In this document: positions 19,773-31,838 of the stretch, one piece after another
Layout: every line of letters starts with the position of its first letter
Numbering within the stretch: the stretch's first letter is position 1
Assembly (NCBI GenBank): GCA_017513085.1
Contig: JAFWDK010000019.1
Location: 160,001 to 224,000 of the forward strand
DNA from: Clostridiales bacterium
GTDB taxonomy: Bacteria > Bacillota > Clostridia > Saccharofermentanales > Saccharofermentanaceae
Length of the DNA: 64,000 nucleotides
Reading direction: 5' to 3'
The notes under the pieces: generated by a model
What the model was told of the DNA's origin: nothing
Seen by the model: the letters and a program-made list of their open reading frames with translations, nothing else
The model's database searches: none
Program-made: the position numbers and the translations under genes

Positions 19773-20039
19773 TCAGAAAGTAAAGATCAGCAACAAGCTG
19801 ACGACCAGTGCATAGATGGCGATGGACTCCATGAATACGATCGAGATAAGAAGCAATGTCTGCAGTTTACTGTACATTTCCGGCTGACGGGATGAGCCTT
19901 CGAGTGCTCTTCCGGCAGCAAGACCGATACCGATACAGGTACCCAGACCGGCAAGACCGATAGCAAGACCTGCGCCGAATCCGGCCAAACCCTTAGGATC
20001 CATAGCAGCAACATCCAGTAAAACACGTGTAAAATTCAT
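19773..20039 (-). CDS. atpE: ATP synthase c subunit
   Basis: Gly-rich helix, RQPE loop, MESIAIY carboxylate. Confidence 0.96.
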   Translation of the reverse strand: MNFTRVLLDVAAMDPKGLAGFGAGLAIGLAGLGTCIGIGLAAGRALEGSSRQPEMYSKLQTLLLISIVFMESIAIYALVVSLLLIFTF

Positions 20040-20068
20040 TTTTATATCCTCCTAATATTTCCTTCTCA

Positions 20069-20935
20069 TCAGGCAACATTTGCTTCAGTCTTTGCAGCCT
20101 GTTTTTCTTCTATTTCTTTGCGTTTTTCTTCTTTTCTCTCCGCAACGGCATGTGCGCTCTCTACAACCTCACCGATATACGAAGTTGTAAGGTAGCAGAA
20201 TACGACCGCCTGGAGTATACCATCCATCAGGTCAAACCACAGACTGAACACACCCGGTACGATGAACGGGACGATCAGACTTAAGAATTCCATCAGGATA
20301 AAAGCACCGAATACATTACCGAAAAGACGTAATGACAGTGAGATCGGTTTAACAAAGAAATCGATGATCTTAAACGGAAGCATGAATGGTTTCGGATCGA
20401 CAAAGGAACTGCAGAAACCCTTCAGGCCCACAAAACGGATCGACATAAAGATCACGTAAGCGATGGCAAAAAGCGCGAGCGAAAACGTAAACGCTATATT
20501 TTTAGCCGGTGGTGGGAGTTTAAAGATCGAACAGACATTACACGATATCAGAACTATGCCTATCGTACCGACCATAGGCACCACTTTTTCCGCCTGGCTA
20601 TCGTTAAGGCCATAATCTTTGCAGACGCCGAAAAGAAGACCAATGATCGTTTCCATAACAGACTGCTTAGCATCCGGGAATGTCTTGCGGCTTTTACCAA
20701 GCCACCAGAAAAGAAGGATCCCCAGTCCGACAGCGATCCACATCACAATGATCGCATCCGTGATCGGAAGCTTGTCATCGCCTAACTGCAGATAACCCTT
20801 CCACTGCATGATACCATGCCGGATCTCATCTCCGATGTTTTTTCCACCGGTAAAGACACCGAAAAGGTCTTTCAGCTCATCTATGAAAGCATCCCAGAAT
20901 TCTGTCCACCAAGAGGCGGCAAGTAAGAATCTCAT
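20069..20935 (-). CDS. atpB: ATP synthase a subunit
   Basis: KPISLSLRLFGN (essential Arg), GILQAVVF. Confidence 0.95.
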   Translation of the reverse strand: MRFLLAASWWTEFWDAFIDELKDLFGVFTGGKNIGDEIRHGIMQWKGYLQLGDDKLPITDAIIVMWIAVGLGILLFWWLGKSRKTFPDAKQSVMETIIGLLFGVCKDYGLNDSQAEKVVPMVGTIGIVLISCNVCSIFKLPPPAKNIAFTFSLALFAIAYVIFMSIRFVGLKGFCSSFVDPKPFMLPFKIIDFFVKPISLSLRLFGNVFGAFILMEFLSLIVPFIVPGVFSLWFDLMDGILQAVVFCYLTTSYIGEVVESAHAVAERKEEKRKEIEEKQAAKTEANVA

Positions 20936-23842: not shown

Positions 23843-25048
23843 CTAATTCTTCGGTGGCAAACGATAATAGTTTGTCAATTGACATCGAATCGATCCGTTA
23901 TACAATTTTCTTCTTTTATCTGCTTTTCGAATAACCTGGTTTTCAAAAGAATCATCCGGAGTGATGACCGACAAACGTATCCCTTTCCGGCAGAATCCGT
24001 TTTTGTCGAGATACGCGCGAGCGATTCCCCGATAGATGTCCGCCGCCGCTTCCGGAGTCAGCAAACGCCCGCCATAAGGCGGATTGCAGAGGATCAGCTG
24101 CCTGTTCATGCGAGTCCAGGAAGAGAGCTCCTCCGGAGTCTGATTCTTAAAATCTGCGACTTTAAATCGCGTAAAATCAGAAACCCCTGCCGCCATGGCA
24201 TTGCGTCTTGCCGTTTCCACTGCTTTCGGATCGATATCCGATCCATAGAAGTATATGTCATCCATAGGAGAAAGATCCGCCATATCCCGTGCTTCCTCTC
24301 TGGCCCGATCGAAGGGCATTTTCCCAAAATACGGCAGTTTTTCGGCTGCAAAATCACGTTTCAGACCAGGCGCGATATTTAAGGCCATCATGGCTGCCTC
24401 GATCACGATCGTTCCGGAACCACAGAACGGGTCGACCAACGCTTCCTCGCCGAAGAATCGGTATTGTGCCGCACTGACCATACCGGCCGCCAGAGTCTCC
24501 TTGATCGGAGCCTCGTGCATAAGAGGACGGTATCCTCGTTTATGCAGTCCATCGCCGGTAAGATCGATCATTACACGGACGTGGTCTTTGACTATTCCAA
24601 AAGAAATCTTCACAATACCCAGTTTCTCGTCCTCCAGGACATGCGCACCCTCCACAAGATGACGCGCCGAAAGAAGTGCTTTTACCATAGCCTTTTTCGC
24701 CAGACTCTGGCAGGCCGGAATACCGAAAAGTTTGGAATCTCTGGAGTAGCCATTCACATGGAATGCCCAGTCATGCGGGATCCAGTCCTCCCAGCGGATC
24801 TTCTCGAAGCCATCGAAAAACTCTTCAAAAGTCACGGCATCGAACTCCCCGATCGAAATAAGAACACGCTCTCCTCTTCTCACCCACATCAGGATCCTTG
24901 CGCTATCCTCGCGCATTGTTTCAGGCTTGGTGTCAACAAGCAAAAGTCCGTCCGTAACTTCGATCCGGCTCTTATCAAAGCCGATATTCAGAAGGTCCTC
25001 TGCGCAATAATGTTCCAGGCCGAAAAGGCAGGTGATCACGATTTTCAT
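23843..25048 (-). CDS. THUMP-domain class I SAM-dependent RNA methyltransferase (RlmL/YpsC-like)
   Basis: CLFGLE, LHKRGYR..APIKETLAA, DPFCGSGT, CNPPYG; ATG at 25048 with AGGAG RBS. Confidence 0.9.
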   Translation of the reverse strand: MKIVITCLFGLEHYCAEDLLNIGFDKSRIEVTDGLLLVDTKPETMREDSARILMWVRRGERVLISIGEFDAVTFEEFFDGFEKIRWEDWIPHDWAFHVNGYSRDSKLFGIPACQSLAKKAMVKALLSARHLVEGAHVLEDEKLGIVKISFGIVKDHVRVMIDLTGDGLHKRGYRPLMHEAPIKETLAAGMVSAAQYRFFGEEALVDPFCGSGTIVIEAAMMALNIAPGLKRDFAAEKLPYFGKMPFDRAREEARDMADLSPMDDIYFYGSDIDPKAVETARRNAMAAGVSDFTRFKVADFKNQTPEELSSWTRMNRQLILCNPPYGGRLLTPEAAADIYRGIARAYLDKNGFCRKGIRLSVITPDDSFENQVIRKADKRRKLYNGSIRCQLTNYYRLPPKN

Positions 25049-25059
25049 CTTAATTCTCC

Positions 25060-26190
25060 TCACACATTTGAAATCACATCCAGAAGCGGCATCAGGATCA
25101 TCTGTGCCAGAAGGATGTGCAGAACGATAAACGGAATGCCCTGAAGGCATCTCGGGATTTTGCTGAACATAAGCCGGCGGTCAAGTACGTGCAGATAAAA
25201 CAGAACGATGGTAAAAGAAAACCAGACTCCGACGACCAGCGCCACCCACCATACAAAAAACGTTGAAACCGCCATTTCGCTACCGGTCGAAAAGCGGCGG
25301 AGGTAGAACACCAGGGGAAGTGCTACTTTCACGATCGTGATCAAGGGCAGGAACGGACTTTCGTCTATCACATCTTCCAGGTTGAACACACGGATCGCCA
25401 GAGTAAACAATGCAAAAGTCAGAAGTGTCGCATAGAGTACGACATGTCCCGGCTGACGAAGGATCTCCGGTGCATAAAGCACATATCCGATACTGATGCC
25501 GCCGCAGATCACATCCGTAACAAGCATGCACAAGATCAGGAGGAAGAATCCCTTTTCTCCTTTAATGGTAGGCGCCTGATATTTCTTGGTTTCATTACGG
25601 TTCCATCCAAGTACCCAGTTCTTCTCTGTTTCGTTTCTTTTCAACACCAGAAGGAACAGAAGACTGACGATCACCAGAAGCGTGGCGCCGGAAGAGTGAC
25701 TCAGGATCTGGACATTATGTGTCTTAAAGATACCAAGTTTAATTCCGAAGAAAGAATCGAATCCCAAAACTTCACGTATCATGGCAATGACCAGGCCATT
25801 GACCAGGTAGAATGCTCCGCCCTGAAGATATCCCGAATCGGTTCCGGACTCGCCTTCCAGAAGAAGATAATAGAAAAGCGGAGCGGAAAGGAACAGGAAT
25901 GTCGATTCCGGCAAAAGGAAAAACGCGGGCATAGGGACCGGAAGTGCGCAGAATTGGGCAAGAAGCGTTGCGATCTCACCGATCACGGCCGCTCCTAAAG
26001 CAAATACACCCCAGCAGATCCGCCGGTTCTTGATAAAGTGTACCGTAGCGATATTGATCAGATAGAAGAGCACGAACTGTACGACCGAGCTGAGGAAGAT
26101 CTTCAGCGAACCGGTCGTGCACAGCATCATCAAGGCAACGGAAACCATGATGTAGAACTGTTTTTTTGTAATGTACGCTACATCCTGCAT
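25060..26190 (-). CDS. Degenerate RnfE-RnfA fusion membrane protein
   Basis: N-half has RnfE-like IREVLGFDSFFG; C-half has RnfA-like FLPLIT and RRLMFSKIPRCLQGIP; follows the rnfCDG-like genes. Confidence 0.7.
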   Translation of the reverse strand: MQDVAYITKKQFYIMVSVALMMLCTTGSLKIFLSSVVQFVLFYLINIATVHFIKNRRICWGVFALGAAVIGEIATLLAQFCALPVPMPAFFLLPESTFLFLSAPLFYYLLLEGESGTDSGYLQGGAFYLVNGLVIAMIREVLGFDSFFGIKLGIFKTHNVQILSHSSGATLLVIVSLLFLLVLKRNETEKNWVLGWNRNETKKYQAPTIKGEKGFFLLILCMLVTDVICGGISIGYVLYAPEILRQPGHVVLYATLLTFALFTLAIRVFNLEDVIDESPFLPLITIVKVALPLVFYLRRFSTGSEMAVSTFFVWWVALVVGVWFSFTIVLFYLHVLDRRLMFSKIPRCLQGIPFIVLHILLAQMILMPLLDVISNV

Positions 26191-26191
26191 T

Positions 26192-27427
26192 TCAACCCAC
26201 CCAGTTAAGATACTCACGCATAAATTTATAAGCCACATTGATCGTACTCAGCGTAGCCGAGCACTGGGACTTCATTTCCGGAAGTCCCTGAATATATGTA
26301 CGGATCTCCGAGAGCGGAATGCCATCCACACTCTCCGAGAGGATATTACCGGAATCACCCGTGACCACACCATCTTCACCTCCGACAACACCGATCTGAG
26401 ACGGCGCCGAAGTCGGTGTCGGAGCCGGCGTAGCCGTAGCAGTCAGCGTACCGGGAGCAGTCGGATCGGACGTTGTTTCCGTCTGAGTCGTCGTTTCCAC
26501 CGTCTCGGAAGAATTCTCACCCGAATCTTCCCCATCCGGATTCTCTTTCTGTTTCAGATACATCTCTTTCGTCAACGATGCACGTGAATTATCGATACAG
26601 ATATTGACCAGATTGATAAAATCCGAGATATTCATGGTGACCCCGTCAATGATCTGCGTGGTTCCGTCGGACTTCATCGCCAGTTTCATCGGATCCTGAA
26701 CCAGGATCAACCGGTTCTGTACACGGTAAGCCTGTTCCGCCCAGATCTTGCCGCTGATGTTATACTCGCCATCGATTGAATCCCGGGAACGAAGACGTCC
26801 GTTCTTATTCACCGCGTCCCACTCGACACGGACGATACGACCGCCACGCACCTCGATCTCCACGTGATCCTGATAACCATCCTTGGCCGGTCCTTTTGCC
26901 TCCGCATAATAGACACCATCATGAAGACCCAGCAGCGGATCATACTCCACCTGGTACTGCACATCAGCCACGATCTGCTGATCCACAGTCACCGGAATAC
27001 GCGCGCCGCAAAGCTGACTCTTCAATTCCTCCAGTTCTTCCTCACCCAGAGAGATCGCATCCTCTTCTTCGCTCAGAATACGGAAATCCATCAGGTTTTC
27101 ACCGTTATCACTGATACTGAGCTGGGTATGGATCGAACCCTCAGGAAGCTCCATCGCCACATCCAGAATATAACCGATCAGCTTTCCATCCTGGTCATGC
27201 GCGCTAAACACATAGCGAATATCCTGATAGTTGTCCAGAATATCCGTCTTCAGCGGCCGGTACTCTGTCGCCATCAGCAAAGAACCGAACTCCTCCTGAT
27301 ACTGCTGCTGCTCATTCTTCCTCGAACGGCTCGTCGTCTGGTAATAACACGTAAACAGGAAAGCCAACGACAAGATCACAACGATCAGCGCGCGGATCGT
27401 AAAACCTTTATAAAACGAACGGCTCAT
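26192..27427 (-). CDS. RnfG-like membrane-anchored protein with an additional FMN-bind-like domain
   Basis: N-terminal TM; GYILDV..FRILSEEE (RnfG-like); DGVYYAE..VEIEVRGGRIVRVEWD..DGTTQIIDGVT (extracellular FMN_bind-like); Thr/Pro linker. Confidence 0.65.
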   Translation of the reverse strand: MSRSFYKGFTIRALIVVILSLAFLFTCYYQTTSRSRKNEQQQYQEEFGSLLMATEYRPLKTDILDNYQDIRYVFSAHDQDGKLIGYILDVAMELPEGSIHTQLSISDNGENLMDFRILSEEEDAISLGEEELEELKSQLCGARIPVTVDQQIVADVQYQVEYDPLLGLHDGVYYAEAKGPAKDGYQDHVEIEVRGGRIVRVEWDAVNKNGRLRSRDSIDGEYNISGKIWAEQAYRVQNRLILVQDPMKLAMKSDGTTQIIDGVTMNISDFINLVNICIDNSRASLTKEMYLKQKENPDGEDSGENSSETVETTTQTETTSDPTAPGTLTATATPAPTPTSAPSQIGVVGGEDGVVTGDSGNILSESVDGIPLSEIRTYIQGLPEMKSQCSATLSTINVAYKFMREYLNWVG

Positions 27428-28389
27428 TCTTCCACCTCCCTGTACCAGGAAGATTTTGAAAAAGCTCTTGGCCGGAAATAGTAGTCAAAAACCGGTGTCA
27501 GTGCATTCATCATCAGGACCGGATAGACCATGGCATAAGAAGCATTGCCGAAGCGGTACAAGATCAATGTCAAAAGCCCCGCGCCGCCGCCAAAGAGGCA
27601 CTGCGCTCTCTTATCCATCGGGACCGTCGTACAATCATGAAGGGTGAAAACGCCGACAAACAGGATTCCTCCGCGAATGAACCACAGGAAGAAATCCATA
27701 ACGTTCACGCCGGACCAGTTAAAAGGAATATATCCCAGAAGGATCACCGCAAAATAAGAGAACGGTGCATATACCGAAAAGAGTTTCCGTTCAAAAAGTA
27801 TCAGCGCACCGATCACGATCAGTACCAGCGAAGTCGTACCGACCATGCCGCAGATCCTGCCGGAAATCACATCGAGAGTGCCGACCCCGGATGCGGAAAA
27901 AGCACTGGAAGGAACTGCGTTTCCTGTCAGAAGTGAGCCGATTTTCCAGAAGTTTTCCATCGGCTGTTCCGAGGCCACCATCTGTGTCGGGAACGCGATC
28001 TGAAGAAAAGCTCTCGCCGCCAGCGCCGGATTAAAAATATTTCTTCCTGCACCACCGAATGCCTGCTTGACCAGAAGCGCGCTGAATGCCGCTGCCAGTG
28101 CCACCGCCCAGAACGACGCGGATACCGGAACAAGCATGGCCAGGATCACGCCGCTGACCAAAGAACTATAATCTACATGAAGCGGCAATTCCGGATATAG
28201 TTTTTGCGTGCAGAAAAAATCACAAAGAAAAAACACCGCACATGAAACGGCCACAAGGATCAATACTCGGATCCCGTAATAAAACACAGCTCCGATGAGG
28301 ATCGGCAGCAACGCCAGAAGCACATACATATAGCGCTCGGATGCCGGTTGATTGGCATGAATATGAGGAGCCAGTTGTTTTCTCTTCAT
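27424..28389 (-). CDS. rnfD: RnfD-like membrane subunit (degenerate)
   Basis: APHIH, VKQAFGGAGRNIFNPALAARAFL, LMMNALTPVFD. Confidence 0.85.
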   Translation of the reverse strand: MKRKQLAPHIHANQPASERYMYVLLALLPILIGAVFYYGIRVLILVAVSCAVFFLCDFFCTQKLYPELPLHVDYSSLVSGVILAMLVPVSASFWAVALAAAFSALLVKQAFGGAGRNIFNPALAARAFLQIAFPTQMVASEQPMENFWKIGSLLTGNAVPSSAFSASGVGTLDVISGRICGMVGTTSLVLIVIGALILFERKLFSVYAPFSYFAVILLGYIPFNWSGVNVMDFFLWFIRGGILFVGVFTLHDCTTVPMDKRAQCLFGGGAGLLTLILYRFGNASYAMVYPVLMMNALTPVFDYYFRPRAFSKSSWYREVEE

Positions 28390-29726
28390 ACGATGCCTCT
28401 CTTTCTCGCCCGATATGCGGCTTTCGCGATATTAGTGGAAAGCTCGATTCCGGACGGGCATACATAGGAGCAGGCCCCACAGGCGATACACTGTTCCACA
28501 GACTCCGAAACAGCCGCCTCTTCCTGACCGACCTCAATCAAGCGGTTGATCAGATACGGAGAAAGTCCGACCGGACATGCACCCACACAAGCTCCGCAAT
28601 GAATACAATTCATGCGCAAAGGTTCAAACTTACGGATAATGGTAATCGCCGTAGTCGTCTTGATGATCGGAACATTCAGGTCCTTAATGGCCACGCCCGT
28701 CATCGCGCCGCCCCAGGCGATCCTCTGCGCAGTATGCGCACCCGGCACGCGTTCAAGAAGTTCCGATACGCTCGTTCCGATCGGAACCAGAACATTATGG
28801 CCCGTGATCGTATCACCGGAGATCGTCACGATACGCGAGATCAACGGCTGGTTCTTCTCGATCATGTCACAAAACGCCTGACATGTCGACGCATTGAAAA
28901 GCACTGCCTTTACTGTCTCTTCCGGATCCTTGCCGATTGGAAGCTCCACACCGTACAAGGCCTTGATTATCAGTTGTTGATATCCCTGCGGATAACGTGA
29001 TTTAAAAAGCCGGACCTCGATCTTCTTATCCAGATATCGATGACTATATTCGGCGACGGCTTTATGTAAAGCATCGATCTCGTCGATCCAGAGATCTTCA
29101 ATACAAAAGATCACCTTTTTCACACGGCAAATACCGCCCAGAGCCATCGCTCCTTGCAGCACGCGGGCCGCATTCACTCGAAGATGGTGAAGATCGCAGG
29201 CAAGGAATGGCTCGCTCTGGGTCGCATTGACCAAGAGCGTGTCCACACCTGCTTTTTCTGCTTTTTTACACTTGTAAAATGTTGAGATACCTTCGCCGCC
29301 CATCCCGCAAATACCGGATGTCCATAAAAGCTTGCTTAATTCCGCAAGAGAAAGAGGATCCACGTTTTTTCTGGGTTGTATCTTCGAAGAAAACCGACGG
29401 CTCAGGTCATTCTTGATCCAGACGGCCTGGCAGCCGGTCCGGTTCGGTAACCGAATCGAATCGATCTTCGTGACCTCTCCTGAAATACTGGCATGGACCG
29501 GAACTCCATTCATATCAGACGGCGCGCCGATCAGATCGCCTATGGCGACAGTATCTCCCACGGAAACCACCGGATCACAGGCAGTTCCTCTATGCTGAAG
29601 CATGGGAAGCACAACTTCCTTTGGTGAACACACTTCAAGAAGGGCTTCGCGCATGATCTTACGTTGCCGAACGAAGTCCAAACCATCGTTAGGGAGGTTT
29701 CCTCTTTTGAAAGTAGCCTTCTTCAT
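28386..29726 (-). CDS. rnfC: RnfC-like subunit (degenerate flavin site, two 4Fe-4S motifs)
   Basis: PVHASISG, YPQG, CIHCGACVGACP and CIACGACSYVCPS. Confidence 0.88.
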   Translation of the reverse strand: MKKATFKRGNLPNDGLDFVRQRKIMREALLEVCSPKEVVLPMLQHRGTACDPVVSVGDTVAIGDLIGAPSDMNGVPVHASISGEVTKIDSIRLPNRTGCQAVWIKNDLSRRFSSKIQPRKNVDPLSLAELSKLLWTSGICGMGGEGISTFYKCKKAEKAGVDTLLVNATQSEPFLACDLHHLRVNAARVLQGAMALGGICRVKKVIFCIEDLWIDEIDALHKAVAEYSHRYLDKKIEVRLFKSRYPQGYQQLIIKALYGVELPIGKDPEETVKAVLFNASTCQAFCDMIEKNQPLISRIVTISGDTITGHNVLVPIGTSVSELLERVPGAHTAQRIAWGGAMTGVAIKDLNVPIIKTTTAITIIRKFEPLRMNCIHCGACVGACPVGLSPYLINRLIEVGQEEAAVSESVEQCIACGACSYVCPSGIELSTNIAKAAYRARKRGIV

Positions 29727-29753
29727 GTGCCCACCTTTCGCACAAGAAGCATA

Positions 29754-30821
29754 TCAGTCGATATAATCCTTCAATTTCTTGCTGCGGCTCGGATGACGAA
29801 GCTTACGGAGCGCTTTCGCCTCGATCTGACGGATACGCTCACGAGTAACGTTGAATTCACGACCTACTTCTTCCAGAGTGCGCTGACGACCATCATCCAG
29901 GCCGAAGCGCAGGCGGAGAACTTTCTCCTCACGGGCAGTCAGGCTCTTCATCGCATCGAGGAGCTGTTCCTTGAGGAGTGTATAAGCAACCTGATCAGCA
30001 GGAGACATTGCGTCATCATCCGGAATGAAGTCACCCAGATGGCTATCTTCCTCTTCACCGATCGGCTTTTCCAACGATACCGGCTCCTGAGAGATCTTCT
30101 GGATCTCACGAACCTTCTCGACCGGAAGACCCATGCGCTCGGCAATCTCTTCTACGGTAGGCTCACGGCCAAGTTCCTGGATCAAAGCACGCTGCTCACG
30201 AACCAGTCTGTTGATCGTCTCTACCATATGTACCGGAATACGGATCGTTCTGGCCTGATCCGCGATCGCACGAGTGATCGCCTGACGGATCCACCATGTT
30301 GCATATGTACTGAACTTAAATCCTTTTGAATGGTCAAACTTATCTACTGCCTTGATCAGACCCAGATTACCTTCCTGGATGAGATCGAGGAACTGCATAC
30401 CACGACCAAGATAGCGCTTCGCAATAGATACAACAAGACGAAGGTTTGCCTCGATCAGCTGGGCCTTCGCGTCCTCGTCTCCGTCCAGCATACGCTGGGC
30501 CAGATCCTGTTCCTGGTCCGCAGTAAGAAGCGGAACCTTACCGATCTCTTTAAGGTACATACGTACCGGATCGTCCATTCCGGCGCCATCCATAGCACCG
30601 GCATCAAGATTCAGGTCGCGGATCGCATCGTCCTCGATGCTGGTTTCCGCAACGATCGAAATACCTTTAGCCTCCAGCTCATCAAAGAGCTTATCGACCA
30701 TATCCGGATCGCCGTCCTGCTCTTCGATCACGTTCATGACGTCGAGCGAAGAAATGCTGTGGTTGTTAGCATTTGCCAGGTTCTCCAGTTTTTGCAGAAT
30801 GTTTGAAAAATCACTTGCCAT
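29754..30821 (-). CDS. rpoD: Primary RNA polymerase sigma factor
   Basis: [69 protein letters not shown]. Confidence 0.98.
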
Positions 30822-30892
30822 TAACGTTCATCCTCCCAAAAATGACATACACCATAGAGGTGCTCGGGACTCTTCTCATTACTACTTCAACG

Positions 30893-31675
30893 TTACTTCT
30901 CTGTATTTTCTTCCGACTCTTTTTCCGGAACGTAAAATTCAACCAGGTCTTCACTGACCGCGCCATCGTTCCCATCAATCTTAAATCTTCCATTCGGAGC
31001 ATATACAGTAAGGACTACGTCCTTGTAATAATGAGCATCGCCGGATTCGTATCCGTATTCTTCACCACGGATCGCGCAATAAGATTCAAACGTCTTTAAA
31101 ACTTTAGCCTTATCGGTATCACTCGAAGAGACCAAAGAAACTTCGTTATTCTTTGTGCCGCTGATCTTAAACCCTGTCGTATATCCATCAGCAGCCTCAG
31201 TATTGACTGTCAGCTCACCTGCAGCAATACAAGTAGACATCTGCTTGTAGATCTTCTTATAGTGAGAAGAGCGAAGCAAAGTAATCGGCAACGAAATACC
31301 GATGATTAAAGCGATACAGATCGCTGTGGTCGTATATACGATAAGTTTGACCTTCTTAGGTGTCTGGATATCATCCGGAGAGATCTCAAAGAGTTTCTCC
31401 ACCTTCTTGTCTTTGGAAGTGGTAGCCTTATCGACCTTAACAGCCTTCTCCACGGCGTTATCAAAGACCGGTGTAACAGTGTGACGCACCGCCTTGGACT
31501 CACGCTTAGGTTGCGGAAGATTCGGGAATTCTACCCCATCCGGATGGTTAAATATTTCAATTGCTTCTGTCGCCGGGAAAACGCAGTCGCAAAAAACGCA
31601 TTCACATAATTCGTCGTTGCTGTCCACCATAATGAGTGAACCGCAGTTCTTGCATAAACCTTGTTTAGTCGCCAT
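30893..31675 (-). CDS. Hypothetical bitopic membrane protein with an N-terminal zinc ribbon
   Basis: CKNC..CECVFCDC, one TM helix, GAGGA RBS. Confidence 0.7.
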   Translation of the reverse strand: MATKQGLCKNCGSLIMVDSNDELCECVFCDCVFPATEAIEIFNHPDGVEFPNLPQPKRESKAVRHTVTPVFDNAVEKAVKVDKATTSKDKKVEKLFEISPDDIQTPKKVKLIVYTTTAICIALIIGISLPITLLRSSHYKKIYKQMSTCIAAGELTVNTEAADGYTTGFKISGTKNNEVSLVSSSDTDKAKVLKTFESYCAIRGEEYGYESGDAHYYKDVVLTVYAPNGRFKIDGNDGAVSEDLVEFYVPEKESEENTEK

Positions 31676-31738
31676 TTATTCCTCGTCCTTTGCATTATCG
31701 CCTACAAAAGGGTATAATCCCACAAGTAAGCACAGTAT

Positions 31739-31767
31739 ATTATATACACTGGTTTGTGTAAGTGCAA
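31739..31767 (-). promoter_or_regulatory. SigA promoter upstream of the zinc-ribbon gene / rpoD / rnf-like cluster
   Basis: TTGCAC-17 bp-TATAAT on the minus strand. Confidence 0.65.
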
Positions 31768-31838
31768 ATACTTTTTTGCACAAATTTCAGTTTTTTATAT
31801 ATTATAATTTTATGGCAGTTTTTGAAGGAGCGCGCCGG

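Follow-up and report, generated by a model that had tools for sequence, protein, structure and literature searches.

The closest described relatives of the system considered here are the Rnf-type ferredoxin:NAD+ (nicotinamide adenine dinucleotide) ion pumps, in which RnfA and RnfE supply four Cys residues to a [2Fe-2S] centre in the membrane (PMC12174285), the N-terminal arm of RnfD inserts into RnfC in solved complexes (PMC9588780) and two residues of Acetobacterium woodii RnfD, N123 and D249, are described as riboflavin ligands (PMC11889175). According to the latter source, the activity of A. woodii Rnf is abolished by mutation of the AE1 Cys residues and by the substitutions T185A in RnfG and N123A or D249A in RnfD. 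Derivatives of Rnf are known as well: it has been proposed that NQR arose from a duplicate of the rnf operon that had lost rnfB (PMC4014512), and Meheust et al. (2021, PMC8238504) reported NQR/RNF-like systems, in which RnfD is fused to a C-terminal NAD-binding domain of the NqrF type (PF00175), as well as multi-flavinylated variants of RnfG. Here we describe a set of four rnf-related genes that directly follows rpoD in a 64,000-nucleotide stretch of DNA from a Clostridiales bacterium of the family Saccharofermentanaceae (henceforth referred to as 'the window'; positions 160,001 to 224,000 of contig JAFWDK010000019.1, assembly GCA_017513085.1), and which an earlier note on the same DNA had taken for a cofactor-stripped Rnf-like complex. 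The set belongs to the Rnf/Nqr superfamily and, judged by its sequences, is a vertically inherited, family-wide offshoot of Rnf that works without RnfB and ApbE.

A conserved rnf-like gene set behind rpoD

The four genes are tightly coupled on the minus strand, as are their neighbours and the features within them, and we refer to their products as C2 (RnfC-family cytoplasmic subunit, 446 aa, 28386-29726), D2 (RnfD/NqrB-family membrane subunit, 321 aa, 27424-28389), G2 (RnfG homologue with an insertion of ~200 aa, 411 aa, 26192-27427) and EA2 (RnfE/RnfA-like fusion, 376 aa, 25060-26190). C2 and D2 overlap by 4 nt, as do D2 and G2, whereas G2 and EA2 are separated by 1 nt and EA2 is separated by 11 nt from a gene for a THUMP/UPF0020 RNA methyltransferase (RlmL/Trm14-like, 23843-25048; PF01170, 148 bits), the start of which we corrected to MKIVIT. 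The start of EA2 was placed at the second Met, and the resulting length of 376 aa compares with 375-377 aa in its relatives. Immediately upstream lies rpoD (29754-30821), which encodes the housekeeping sigma-70 factor (NF006666 RpoD, 574.8 bits against a cut-off of 572). Its stop codon at 29754-29756 and the ATG of C2 at 29724-29726 leave a spacer of 27 nt (29727-29753), in which AAAGGTGG (29731-29738) can be read directly as the ribosome-binding site and which is free of terminator-like hairpins. The list of open reading frames (ORFs) contains no rnfB at the locus. The coordinates and junctions therefore agree with the earlier description of four coupled ORFs that begin 27 nt after rpoD, lack rnfB and run up to an RNA methyltransferase gene.

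rpoD and C2 are probably part of one transcription unit. Contigs from RNA libraries, matching at 95% or more, cover parts of C2, D2 and G2, and two of them, from two studies, bridge the rpoD/C2 junction (X17, 29437-29841; X20, 29580-29879); the C2/D2 junction is bridged in RNA run X19 and the D2/G2 junction in X17. None of the three runs gave a contig over EA2 (25060-26190), from which we draw no conclusion. In every locus whose contig extends far enough, rpoD precedes C2. In 15 public loci of the genus the order is ZnR-rpoD-C2-D2-G2-EA2-MT-proA-rpiB-upp as far as the contigs reach (ZnR, a zinc-ribbon/transmembrane protein; MT, the methyltransferase; 13 of the loci compared within the genus are complete and 3 are cut by contig ends), and in six loci of four other genera and three loci of genus g2 an EA2-type ORF of 358-398 aa comes after ZnR-rpoD-C2-D2-G2.

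No stop codon or frameshift was found in any copy of the set and the lengths of the genes are conserved across loci. Pairwise ratios of nonsynonymous to synonymous substitution rates (dN/dS), calculated from seven pairs with dS saturated in two cells, were 0.02-0.08 for C2, 0.07-0.10 for D2, 0.07-0.20 for G2 and 0.08-0.28 for EA2; those of the flanking genes were 0.00-0.18. EA2 evolves fast (33-73% identity within the genus), and a profile of it matched 30 of 60 relatives, including 23 of 23 within the genus, with no stops. The earlier view that the set is not decaying thus holds, with all frames open and the dN/dS of all four genes at 0.02-0.28. A G2 profile matches 139 of the 141 genomes of the host family, and no full-length G2 was found outside the family among 399 Clostridia, where only the inserted domain occurs on its own.

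The same genome, which is 99.4% complete, carries a canonical rnfC-D-G-E-A-B operon on another contig (L009, 3491-8713, minus strand), which has all textbook motifs and served as our internal reference, and it also contains apbE; the second operon, the rnfB and the apbE for which the earlier note had suggested a search are all three present elsewhere in the genome. RnfB, the polyferredoxin input subunit of Rnf, is thus missing from the locus and present in the separate canonical operon. The situation differs in g2, the largest genus of the family. While RnfE, ApbE, RnfB and G2 are all present in the other seven genera, canonical RnfE was detected in none of 14 g2 genomes and ApbE in 1 of 54, and the RnfB model matched 8 of 54 genomes, in every case on the generic ferredoxin part (93-178) and never on the RnfB-specific N-terminus. 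Since G2 is retained in 98 of 100 g2 genomes, the set persists beyond the canonical pump and depends on neither RnfB nor the flavin transferase.

To place the set among its homologues, we built a FastTree phylogeny of 133 RnfD-like sequences (150 matches, from which 25 outside 250-420 aa were dropped and to which 8 of our own were added). All D2-type sequences, including that of the g2 locus L073, group together at one side of the tree, and the group also holds clusters from public records labelled Clostridiales or Ruminococcaceae. No rooted sister group of the D2 clade can be read from the tree.

Retained and lost cofactor sites

C2, D2 and G2 are, by their sequences, homologues of RnfC, RnfD and RnfG; EA2 is assigned less firmly as a homologue of RnfE plus RnfA, and all four are under purifying selection. 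C2 consists of an RnfC_N barrel, a NuoF-like domain and a C-terminal 2x[4Fe-4S] ferredoxin domain (TIGR01945, PF01512, PF13375 and Fer4). It scores 310.6 bits against the NCBIfam model TIGR01945 for rnfC (cut-off 245.95), is 31% identical to the canonical RnfC of the same genome and has its best matches in the Protein Data Bank (PDB) with the RnfC chains 9eri_C, 7zc6_C and 8ahx_C (E 5e-58 to 2e-55). Both CxxCxxCxxxCP motifs, the presence of which the earlier note had reported, are invariant in 20-21 sequences: the first, CIHCGACVGACP (aa 374-385, 28572-28607), with C374, C377, C380, C384 and P385, and the second, CIACGACSYVCP (aa 413-424, 28455-28490), with C413, C416, C419, C423 and P424. The nucleotide and flavin pocket is altered. 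The Gly-rich loop reads GMGGEGIST (aa 141-149, 29280-29306) in place of the canonical GMGGAAFPT, and NATQSEP (aa 167-173, 29208-29228) stands in place of N[GA][AS]ECEP. In the 30 best-scoring loci for canonical clostridial RnfC the motifs G[ML]GG[AG].FP. and N[GA][AS]ECEP are found in 30 of 30, so that the differences in C2, which has neither G[ML]GG[AG].FP. nor N..ECEP, are real and beyond normal variation. The note's description of these motifs as drifted is correct in so far as they differ from all 30 canonical proteins, but the altered forms are themselves fixed across six genera: in 20 sequences G141, M142, G143 and G146 of the loop (family pattern GMG[GR][EDN]G.[PS][TSA]) and N167, Q170, S171, E172 and P173 are invariant. 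Because of this fixation, C2 more likely has a ligand pocket of altered properties than one left empty. SEP is also the form found in NuoF, where the exchange of E for Q at the matching position is tolerated.

D2 has PF03116 as its sole domain (224 bits), stays under the cut-off of TIGR01946 (174 against 207), is 30% identical to the canonical RnfD of the same genome and matches 7zc6_D and 9eri_D at E 3e-35. The loop that carries the flavinylated Thr of canonical RnfD (VxxATPL) corresponds to aa ~150-170 of D2 (27880-27942), is variable and lacks the motif; alignment to canonical RnfD and to 9eri_D, in which T156 lies in TTAT(156)PL, did not recover it. The covalent flavin mononucleotide (FMN) Thr of RnfD (..ATPL; T156 in A. 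woodii) is thus missing from D2, and [ST]GA[ST] is absent from 21 of 22 D2 sequences; in the exception (L037), TGAT stands where the flavinylation site used to be (aa 155-158) and is probably a relic. Here the note's reading of an RnfD without its flavinylation site is borne out, and the motifs that it quoted (GTTS in D2 as well as GMGGEGIST, NATQSEP and the two CxxCxxCxxxCP of C2) were all found as stated. Both riboflavin ligands are in place: in the phmmer alignment to 9eri_D, Asn120 (28030-28032) corresponds to A. woodii N123 and Asp252 (27634-27636) to D249, both are invariant in the D2 alignment, and the Asn and Asp recur in almost every one of the 133 RnfD-like sequences. The N-terminal arm is conserved too, with A7, P8 and I10 invariant.

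G2 has no Pfam family, even at E up to 10, and no NCBIfam family. A profile of it nevertheless aligns with one of 31 canonical RnfG sequences at an hhalign probability of 98.2% (E 2.7e-14, G2 1-167 on RnfG 1-165), and Foldseek matched it to the RnfG chains 7zc6_G and 9eri_G at E ~1e-4 and also to NqrC chains. The earlier label 'RnfG-like' was right about the kinship and too cautious about its degree, as G2 is a true RnfG homologue. Residues 1-167 (26927-27427) form an N-terminal transmembrane helix and an RnfG-type domain that ends just before the flavinylation loop. They are followed by an inserted domain of the 2KZX/3O6U type (aa 168-292, 26552-26926; hmmsearch against the PDB, 2kzx_A at E 2.5e-26 and 3o6u_A at E 5e-5; Foldseek E 3.6e-8), a small extracytoplasmic FMN-binding-like domain that measures ~125 aa in G2. 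Where 2KZX has SGAT, the insert has [DE]GV[TS], and K, R, V or Y stands in place of the Thr in other genera. A Pro/Thr/Glu-rich low-complexity linker of variable length (aa ~293-364, 26336-26551; predicted local distance difference test (pLDDT) <50 at aa 298-364) then leads to a conserved C-terminal piece with a hairpin and a long helix (aa 365-411, 26195-26335; pLDDT 80-91), in which D368, G369, E374, N397, A399 and Y400 are invariant. These 47 residues are probably the remnant of the RnfG C-terminus without its SGAT loop: they align weakly with RnfG 159-189 (hhalign probability 10.7%, E 0.003), and a relative from another family (L077) keeps IDAVSGATVTS at the corresponding end. The register of the lost loop is DGIPLSE by manual alignment and IQGLPEM by hhalign, and the covalent-FMN Thr (SGAT) is missing in either. 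With [ST]GA[ST] in 0 of 22 G2 sequences, the note's statement that the protein has no SGAT or TGAT stands. Domains like the insert are also found in many other Clostridia, where they form small proteins of ~150-340 aa, alone or in tandem, and the solved relatives 2KZX and 3O6U, both labelled 'uncharacterized', carry SGAT/TGAT.

The identity of EA2 as a fusion of RnfE and RnfA was deduced from several weak-to-moderate lines of evidence. Its position after G matches the rnfCDGEA order. The AlphaFold2 (AF2) model (pLDDT 81.4, predicted TM-score 0.81) has 11 long helices in a 6 + 5 arrangement, from which we define an RnfE/NqrD-like N-half with six predicted transmembrane helices (aa 1-195, 25606-26190) and a C-half with five, resembling RnfA minus its first helix (aa 196-376, 25063-25605) and ending in a conserved RRLxF(x7)G[IL]PF motif. 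In blastp against the same genome the first half resembles RnfE (E 4e-4) and the last part RnfA (E 1e-3). By hhalign the N-half aligns with RnfE (probability 77%, E 2e-5) and the C-half with RnfA (21%, E 1e-3, aa 242-375 on RnfA 71-194), and the crossed pairs reach 1.8-2.5%. The only high-probability Foldseek matches are RnfE 9eri_E (0.97) and NqrD chains (0.89-0.95), with target-normalised TM-scores of 0.45-0.54; protein-atlas leads to PF02508 (Rnf-Nqr) clusters, with scores of 0.77-0.78, are weak and serve as leads only. Whereas Rnf has separate RnfA and RnfE with two Cys each, EA2 is a single protein of 376 aa with no conserved Cys column among 24 sequences. Of the E/A fusion without paired Cys motifs that the earlier note had proposed, the loss of the ligands is thus clear, but the fusion itself has no family match behind it. 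In the model the K/R-rich loops at aa 53-57, 189-208 and 340-347 all lie on one side, so that the C-half begins on the side where the N-half ends. Because the first helix of RnfA has been dropped, the antiparallel arrangement of E and A would survive the fusion, and the two halves may be expected to stay antiparallel, as described for RnfE/RnfA (cf. PMC12174285). An SGAT at aa 168-171 of EA2 (25678-25689), inside a predicted transmembrane helix and present in 2 of 19 sequences, is probably a chance match.

Co-folding of D2 with EA2 gave a score of 0.73 (best control 0.00), which passes a mark that 58 of 80 solved complexes, and 2 of 110 mismatched pairs, also attain; at least 91% of the contacts agree over three runs and the partner pLDDT is at least 75. 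The predicted interface joins the last two helices of EA2 (aa 328-376) to the conserved KQxFGGxGxNxxNPA region and the C-terminal helices of D2.

Overall, the comparison of sequences demonstrates that the ligands of covalent FMN on D and G and those of the membrane [2Fe-2S] centre are lost, as neither the FMN-Thr residues nor the A/E Cys were recovered in any alignment, and that the [4Fe-4S] sites and pocket of C2 and the riboflavin ligands of D2 are kept. The term 'cofactor-stripped' is accordingly apt for the FMN-Thr of D and G and the Cys of A/E, but not for the C2 clusters, the pocket or the D2 riboflavin ligands, which are invariant. The arm from C to D probably still carries cofactors.

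Candidate functions of the set

The losses leave no U-shaped route from RnfB through A/E, G and D to C and therefore, we infer, no ferredoxin:NAD+ ion pump. That the set is a normal pump of this kind, which the earlier note had already denied, seems very unlikely, given that the ligands are unrecovered and that g2 keeps the set without RnfE and without an RnfB-specific match. The note's own candidates for a positive role, a redox sensor/transducer or a transporter, are hypothetical. What would remain redox-competent is solely the arm on the cytoplasmic side, that is, the nucleotide/flavin site and two [4Fe-4S] clusters of C2 and the riboflavin of D2. We consider that the set may be an rnfB-less Rnf offshoot in which the redox state of this arm is read and coupled conformationally to the gating of an ion or solute, a reading to which we give somewhat less than an even chance, its secure part (homology, selection and ligand losses) being included in that estimate. 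The individual steps are proposed with low confidence. A cytoplasmic reductant would load the C2-D2 arm, the redox state of the arm would reach the Cys-less EA2 module, with G2 outside, in the form of a conformational change, EA2 may keep the inverted-repeat, alternating-access build of RnfA/E, and the complex would then gate or drive the movement of an ion or small solute instead of electron flow across the membrane. As the set follows rpoD and persists where canonical Rnf has been lost, a constitutive housekeeping role is suggested.

Several points weigh against redox-read gating. The function was deduced from sequences and models and the transported ion or solute is hypothetical. Gating is an analogy, and it is the [2Fe-2S] cluster, absent from the set, that triggers the alternation of RnfA/E in the real pump. 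Position 5 of the C2 Gly loop holds an acidic residue or Asn and the Phe-Pro of canonical RnfC is changed, which makes the binding of FMN or NAD(H) by C2 putative, and the presumed riboflavin site of D2 is marked by just two conserved residues. EA2 gave no Foldseek match at E<=0.001, its profile found no Rnf/Nqr chain among PDB sequences, and neither Pfam nor NCBIfam returned anything for it. The co-folding of D2 and EA2 was built on in-house alignments and, since solved Rnf/Nqr complexes exist, the pass may mirror likeness and not binding. Lastly, RNA-library contigs can include DNA and are no proof of a single transcript. A bolder version, possible but doubtful, is that the complex has abandoned trans-membrane electron transfer but retained its four core subunits, converted from a respiratory pump into a redox-read, conformationally coupled ion/solute gate or signalling device that is expressed with the housekeeping sigma factor and is more indispensable than the real Rnf, and that the set would be a second, independent rnfB-less rnf duplicate beside the proposed ancestor of NQR, which took a different route.

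The conserved part of the set corresponds exactly to the output arm of Rnf and C2 is the most constrained subunit (dN/dS 0.02-0.08). We therefore weighed whether the set is half of an Rnf oxidoreductase, in which electrons would pass between a nucleotide at C2 and the pair of [4Fe-4S] clusters and on to the D2 riboflavin and a membrane- or D2-bound acceptor, with G2 and EA2 as scaffold. The riboflavin of NqrB, described as the exit to quinone in NQR (PMC12174285), offers a model for the last step. However, no acceptor is in sight, with menA and cytochrome bd not found in the 99.4%-complete genome, for which reason the idea of a quinone reductase was abandoned; D2 lacks extra N-terminal helices such as those of the NqrB quinone site, and a role as scaffold fails to explain why G2 and EA2 are intact and selected in 139 of 141 genomes. 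Such an oxidoreductase is, in our judgement, unlikely.

Distinctly less probable is a membrane device without redox chemistry, serving in transport, as a channel or as a structure, with C2 as a NqrA-like cap and its Fe-S clusters structural. NqrA provides a precedent for an RnfC homologue without a redox role, RnfD has the fold of urea and ammonium transporters and RnfA/E an alternating-access fold (all PMC12174285), and the extracellular G2 bears an extra domain and a long linker. Unlike NqrA, however, C2 has retained all eight Cys of its clusters together with an invariant pocket, and D2 keeps both riboflavin ligands; conservation of these sites over six genera is hard to explain without cofactors.

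That the set is still a ferredoxin:NAD+ (or similar) pump, which uses non-covalent flavins and borrows RnfB and ApbE from the canonical operon, gains some plausibility from the presence of rnfCDGEAB (L009) and apbE in the genome and from the score of C2 above the rnfC cut-off. We hold it to be remote, because genus g2 has the set without RnfE (0/14), without an RnfB-specific match (54 genomes) and with ApbE in 1 of 54, because EA2 has no conserved Cys, and because in A. woodii activity and growth are reported to be abolished when the AE1 Cys or T185 of RnfG is lost (PMC11889175). Finally, a decaying, functionless rnf duplicate would account for the lost ligands and the fast evolution of EA2 (33-73% identity in the genus), but is hardly credible and was discarded in view of the open frames without stop or frameshift, dN/dS well below 1, the kept lengths and the presence of the set in 139 of 141 genomes, including where the canonical operon has been lost.

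Neighbouring genes and described relatives

The gene upstream of rpoD (30893-31675) encodes a zinc-ribbon/transmembrane protein of 260 aa with a Cys-rich N-terminal start, one transmembrane helix and an outer domain, and no Pfam or NCBIfam family was found for it. We considered it as a new input subunit and ruled it out on account of its distribution, which is wider than that of the Rnf-like set: it was found in each of the four families of the order (12/12, 2/2, 1/1 and 1/1 in f1, f2, f3 and f4, respectively) and in 17 of 398 Clostridia genomes, all within the order and always just upstream of rpoD. Because of this wider spread, the gene is not specifically linked to the set. A promoter-like site lies near it at 31739-31768. 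The methyltransferase gene follows EA2 in the genus of the window and in g5 (L039), g6 (L037) and g8 (L042), and by tblastn it is absent from all three g2 loci (L073-L075), so that it was rejected as a part of the system; of the rpoD-rnf-methyltransferase synteny envisaged in the earlier note, the order of rpoD and the set is kept wherever the contigs reach, but the methyltransferase is not. Further downstream, two ORFs resembling the c and a subunits of an F-type ATP synthase (19773-20935, minus strand) were recognised by reading of the sequence alone. A flavin importer was also considered for the set and set aside, as the genome already has a riboflavin S component of the energy-coupling factor (ECF) RibU type (93 bits, L086), with no need of a new importer. 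Lumazine synthase (PF00885) was not found genome-wide, and the host organism is probably a riboflavin auxotroph.

D2-type proteins in public records (P0096, P0139, P0043 and P0012) are named 'RnfABCDGE type electron transport complex subunit D' or 'RNF, RnfD subunit'. Since these names and the rnfC cut-off both say Rnf, metabolic reconstructions will credit the lineage with an Rnf pump, whereas most species of this abundant rumen lineage probably lack a canonical one. The database name thus probably misstates the role of an Rnf offshoot from a family of rumen Clostridia from which most carriers of trans-membrane electron flow appear to be gone. As a natural cofactor knockout of Rnf that is kept by selection, the set allows one to ask what the core of RnfD, RnfG and RnfA/E can do without the electron loop, and lets the arm from riboflavin to RnfC be studied on its own. 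We found no published description of this variant in the literature; the cluster tables of PMC8238504 might list such loci.

Compared with the solved Rnf complexes (7ZC6, 9ERI and 8AHX), the set shares the C-D-G-E-A order, the homology of C2, D2 and G2, the two [4Fe-4S] clusters in C2, the riboflavin ligands and RnfC-binding arm of D2, and the N-terminal anchor helix and RnfG domain of G2. It differs in lacking RnfB and the flavinylated Thr residues of D and G, in its independence of ApbE, in the fusion of E and A into one 11-helix protein without the four [2Fe-2S] Cys, in the G insertion of ~200 aa and in the C2 pocket (A to E, D or N, FP lost and ECEP to QSEP). Five defining features of Rnf are therefore lacking: the pocket motifs, the FMN on D, the FMN on G, the A/E Cys and RnfB.

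A second odd Rnf set, related to the first but reduced to a lesser degree, was seen in 5 of 5 genomes of genus g48 in a sister family (L077, 6985-13052, minus strand; also L076). Like the set in the window, it has a G with internal motif-less 2KZX-like domains, a D that lacks the Thr and a C that has both Fe-S motifs. In contrast, it has its own adjacent ApbE, separate E and A genes that barely match PF02508 and no position beside rpoD; its G measures 456 aa, with two internal domains and a C-terminal IDAVSGATVTS, and its C is without the Gly loop altogether.

The systems of Meheust et al. resemble the set as partial or elaborated Rnf/Nqr derivatives, some with extra FMN-binding domains in RnfG, but are defined by flavinylation motifs and association with ApbE (PMC8238504). 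D2 carries no PF00175-type domain, the cluster of the set has no ApbE and the domains of G2 have no motif, which places the set outside the NQR/RNF-like systems so defined. The Rsx complex of E. coli, which keeps the transcription factor SoxR reduced, is likewise an Rnf-type complex put to a use other than energy conservation (PMC12174285), but it is canonical and complete, with RsxB and every cofactor site, and the only tie of our set to a regulator is its adjacency to rpoD.

The Na+-NQR, finally, shares with the set the origin, proposed for NQR, from an rnfB-less duplicate and the state of an offshoot in which one class of subunits has been stripped of its cofactors. NQR recruited NqrF, an NADH dehydrogenase with FAD and 2Fe-2S, as its new input subunit, kept its covalent FMNs and [2Fe-2S] centre and stripped NqrA; at the locus in the window there is no NqrF-like or sixth gene, a statement about the locus only, as no genome-wide search for NqrF was made. 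The set shows the reverse pattern, with the clusters of C2 kept and the cofactors in the membrane and outside lost, and as such it is a living parallel to the rnfB-less intermediate that has been proposed on the way to NQR.

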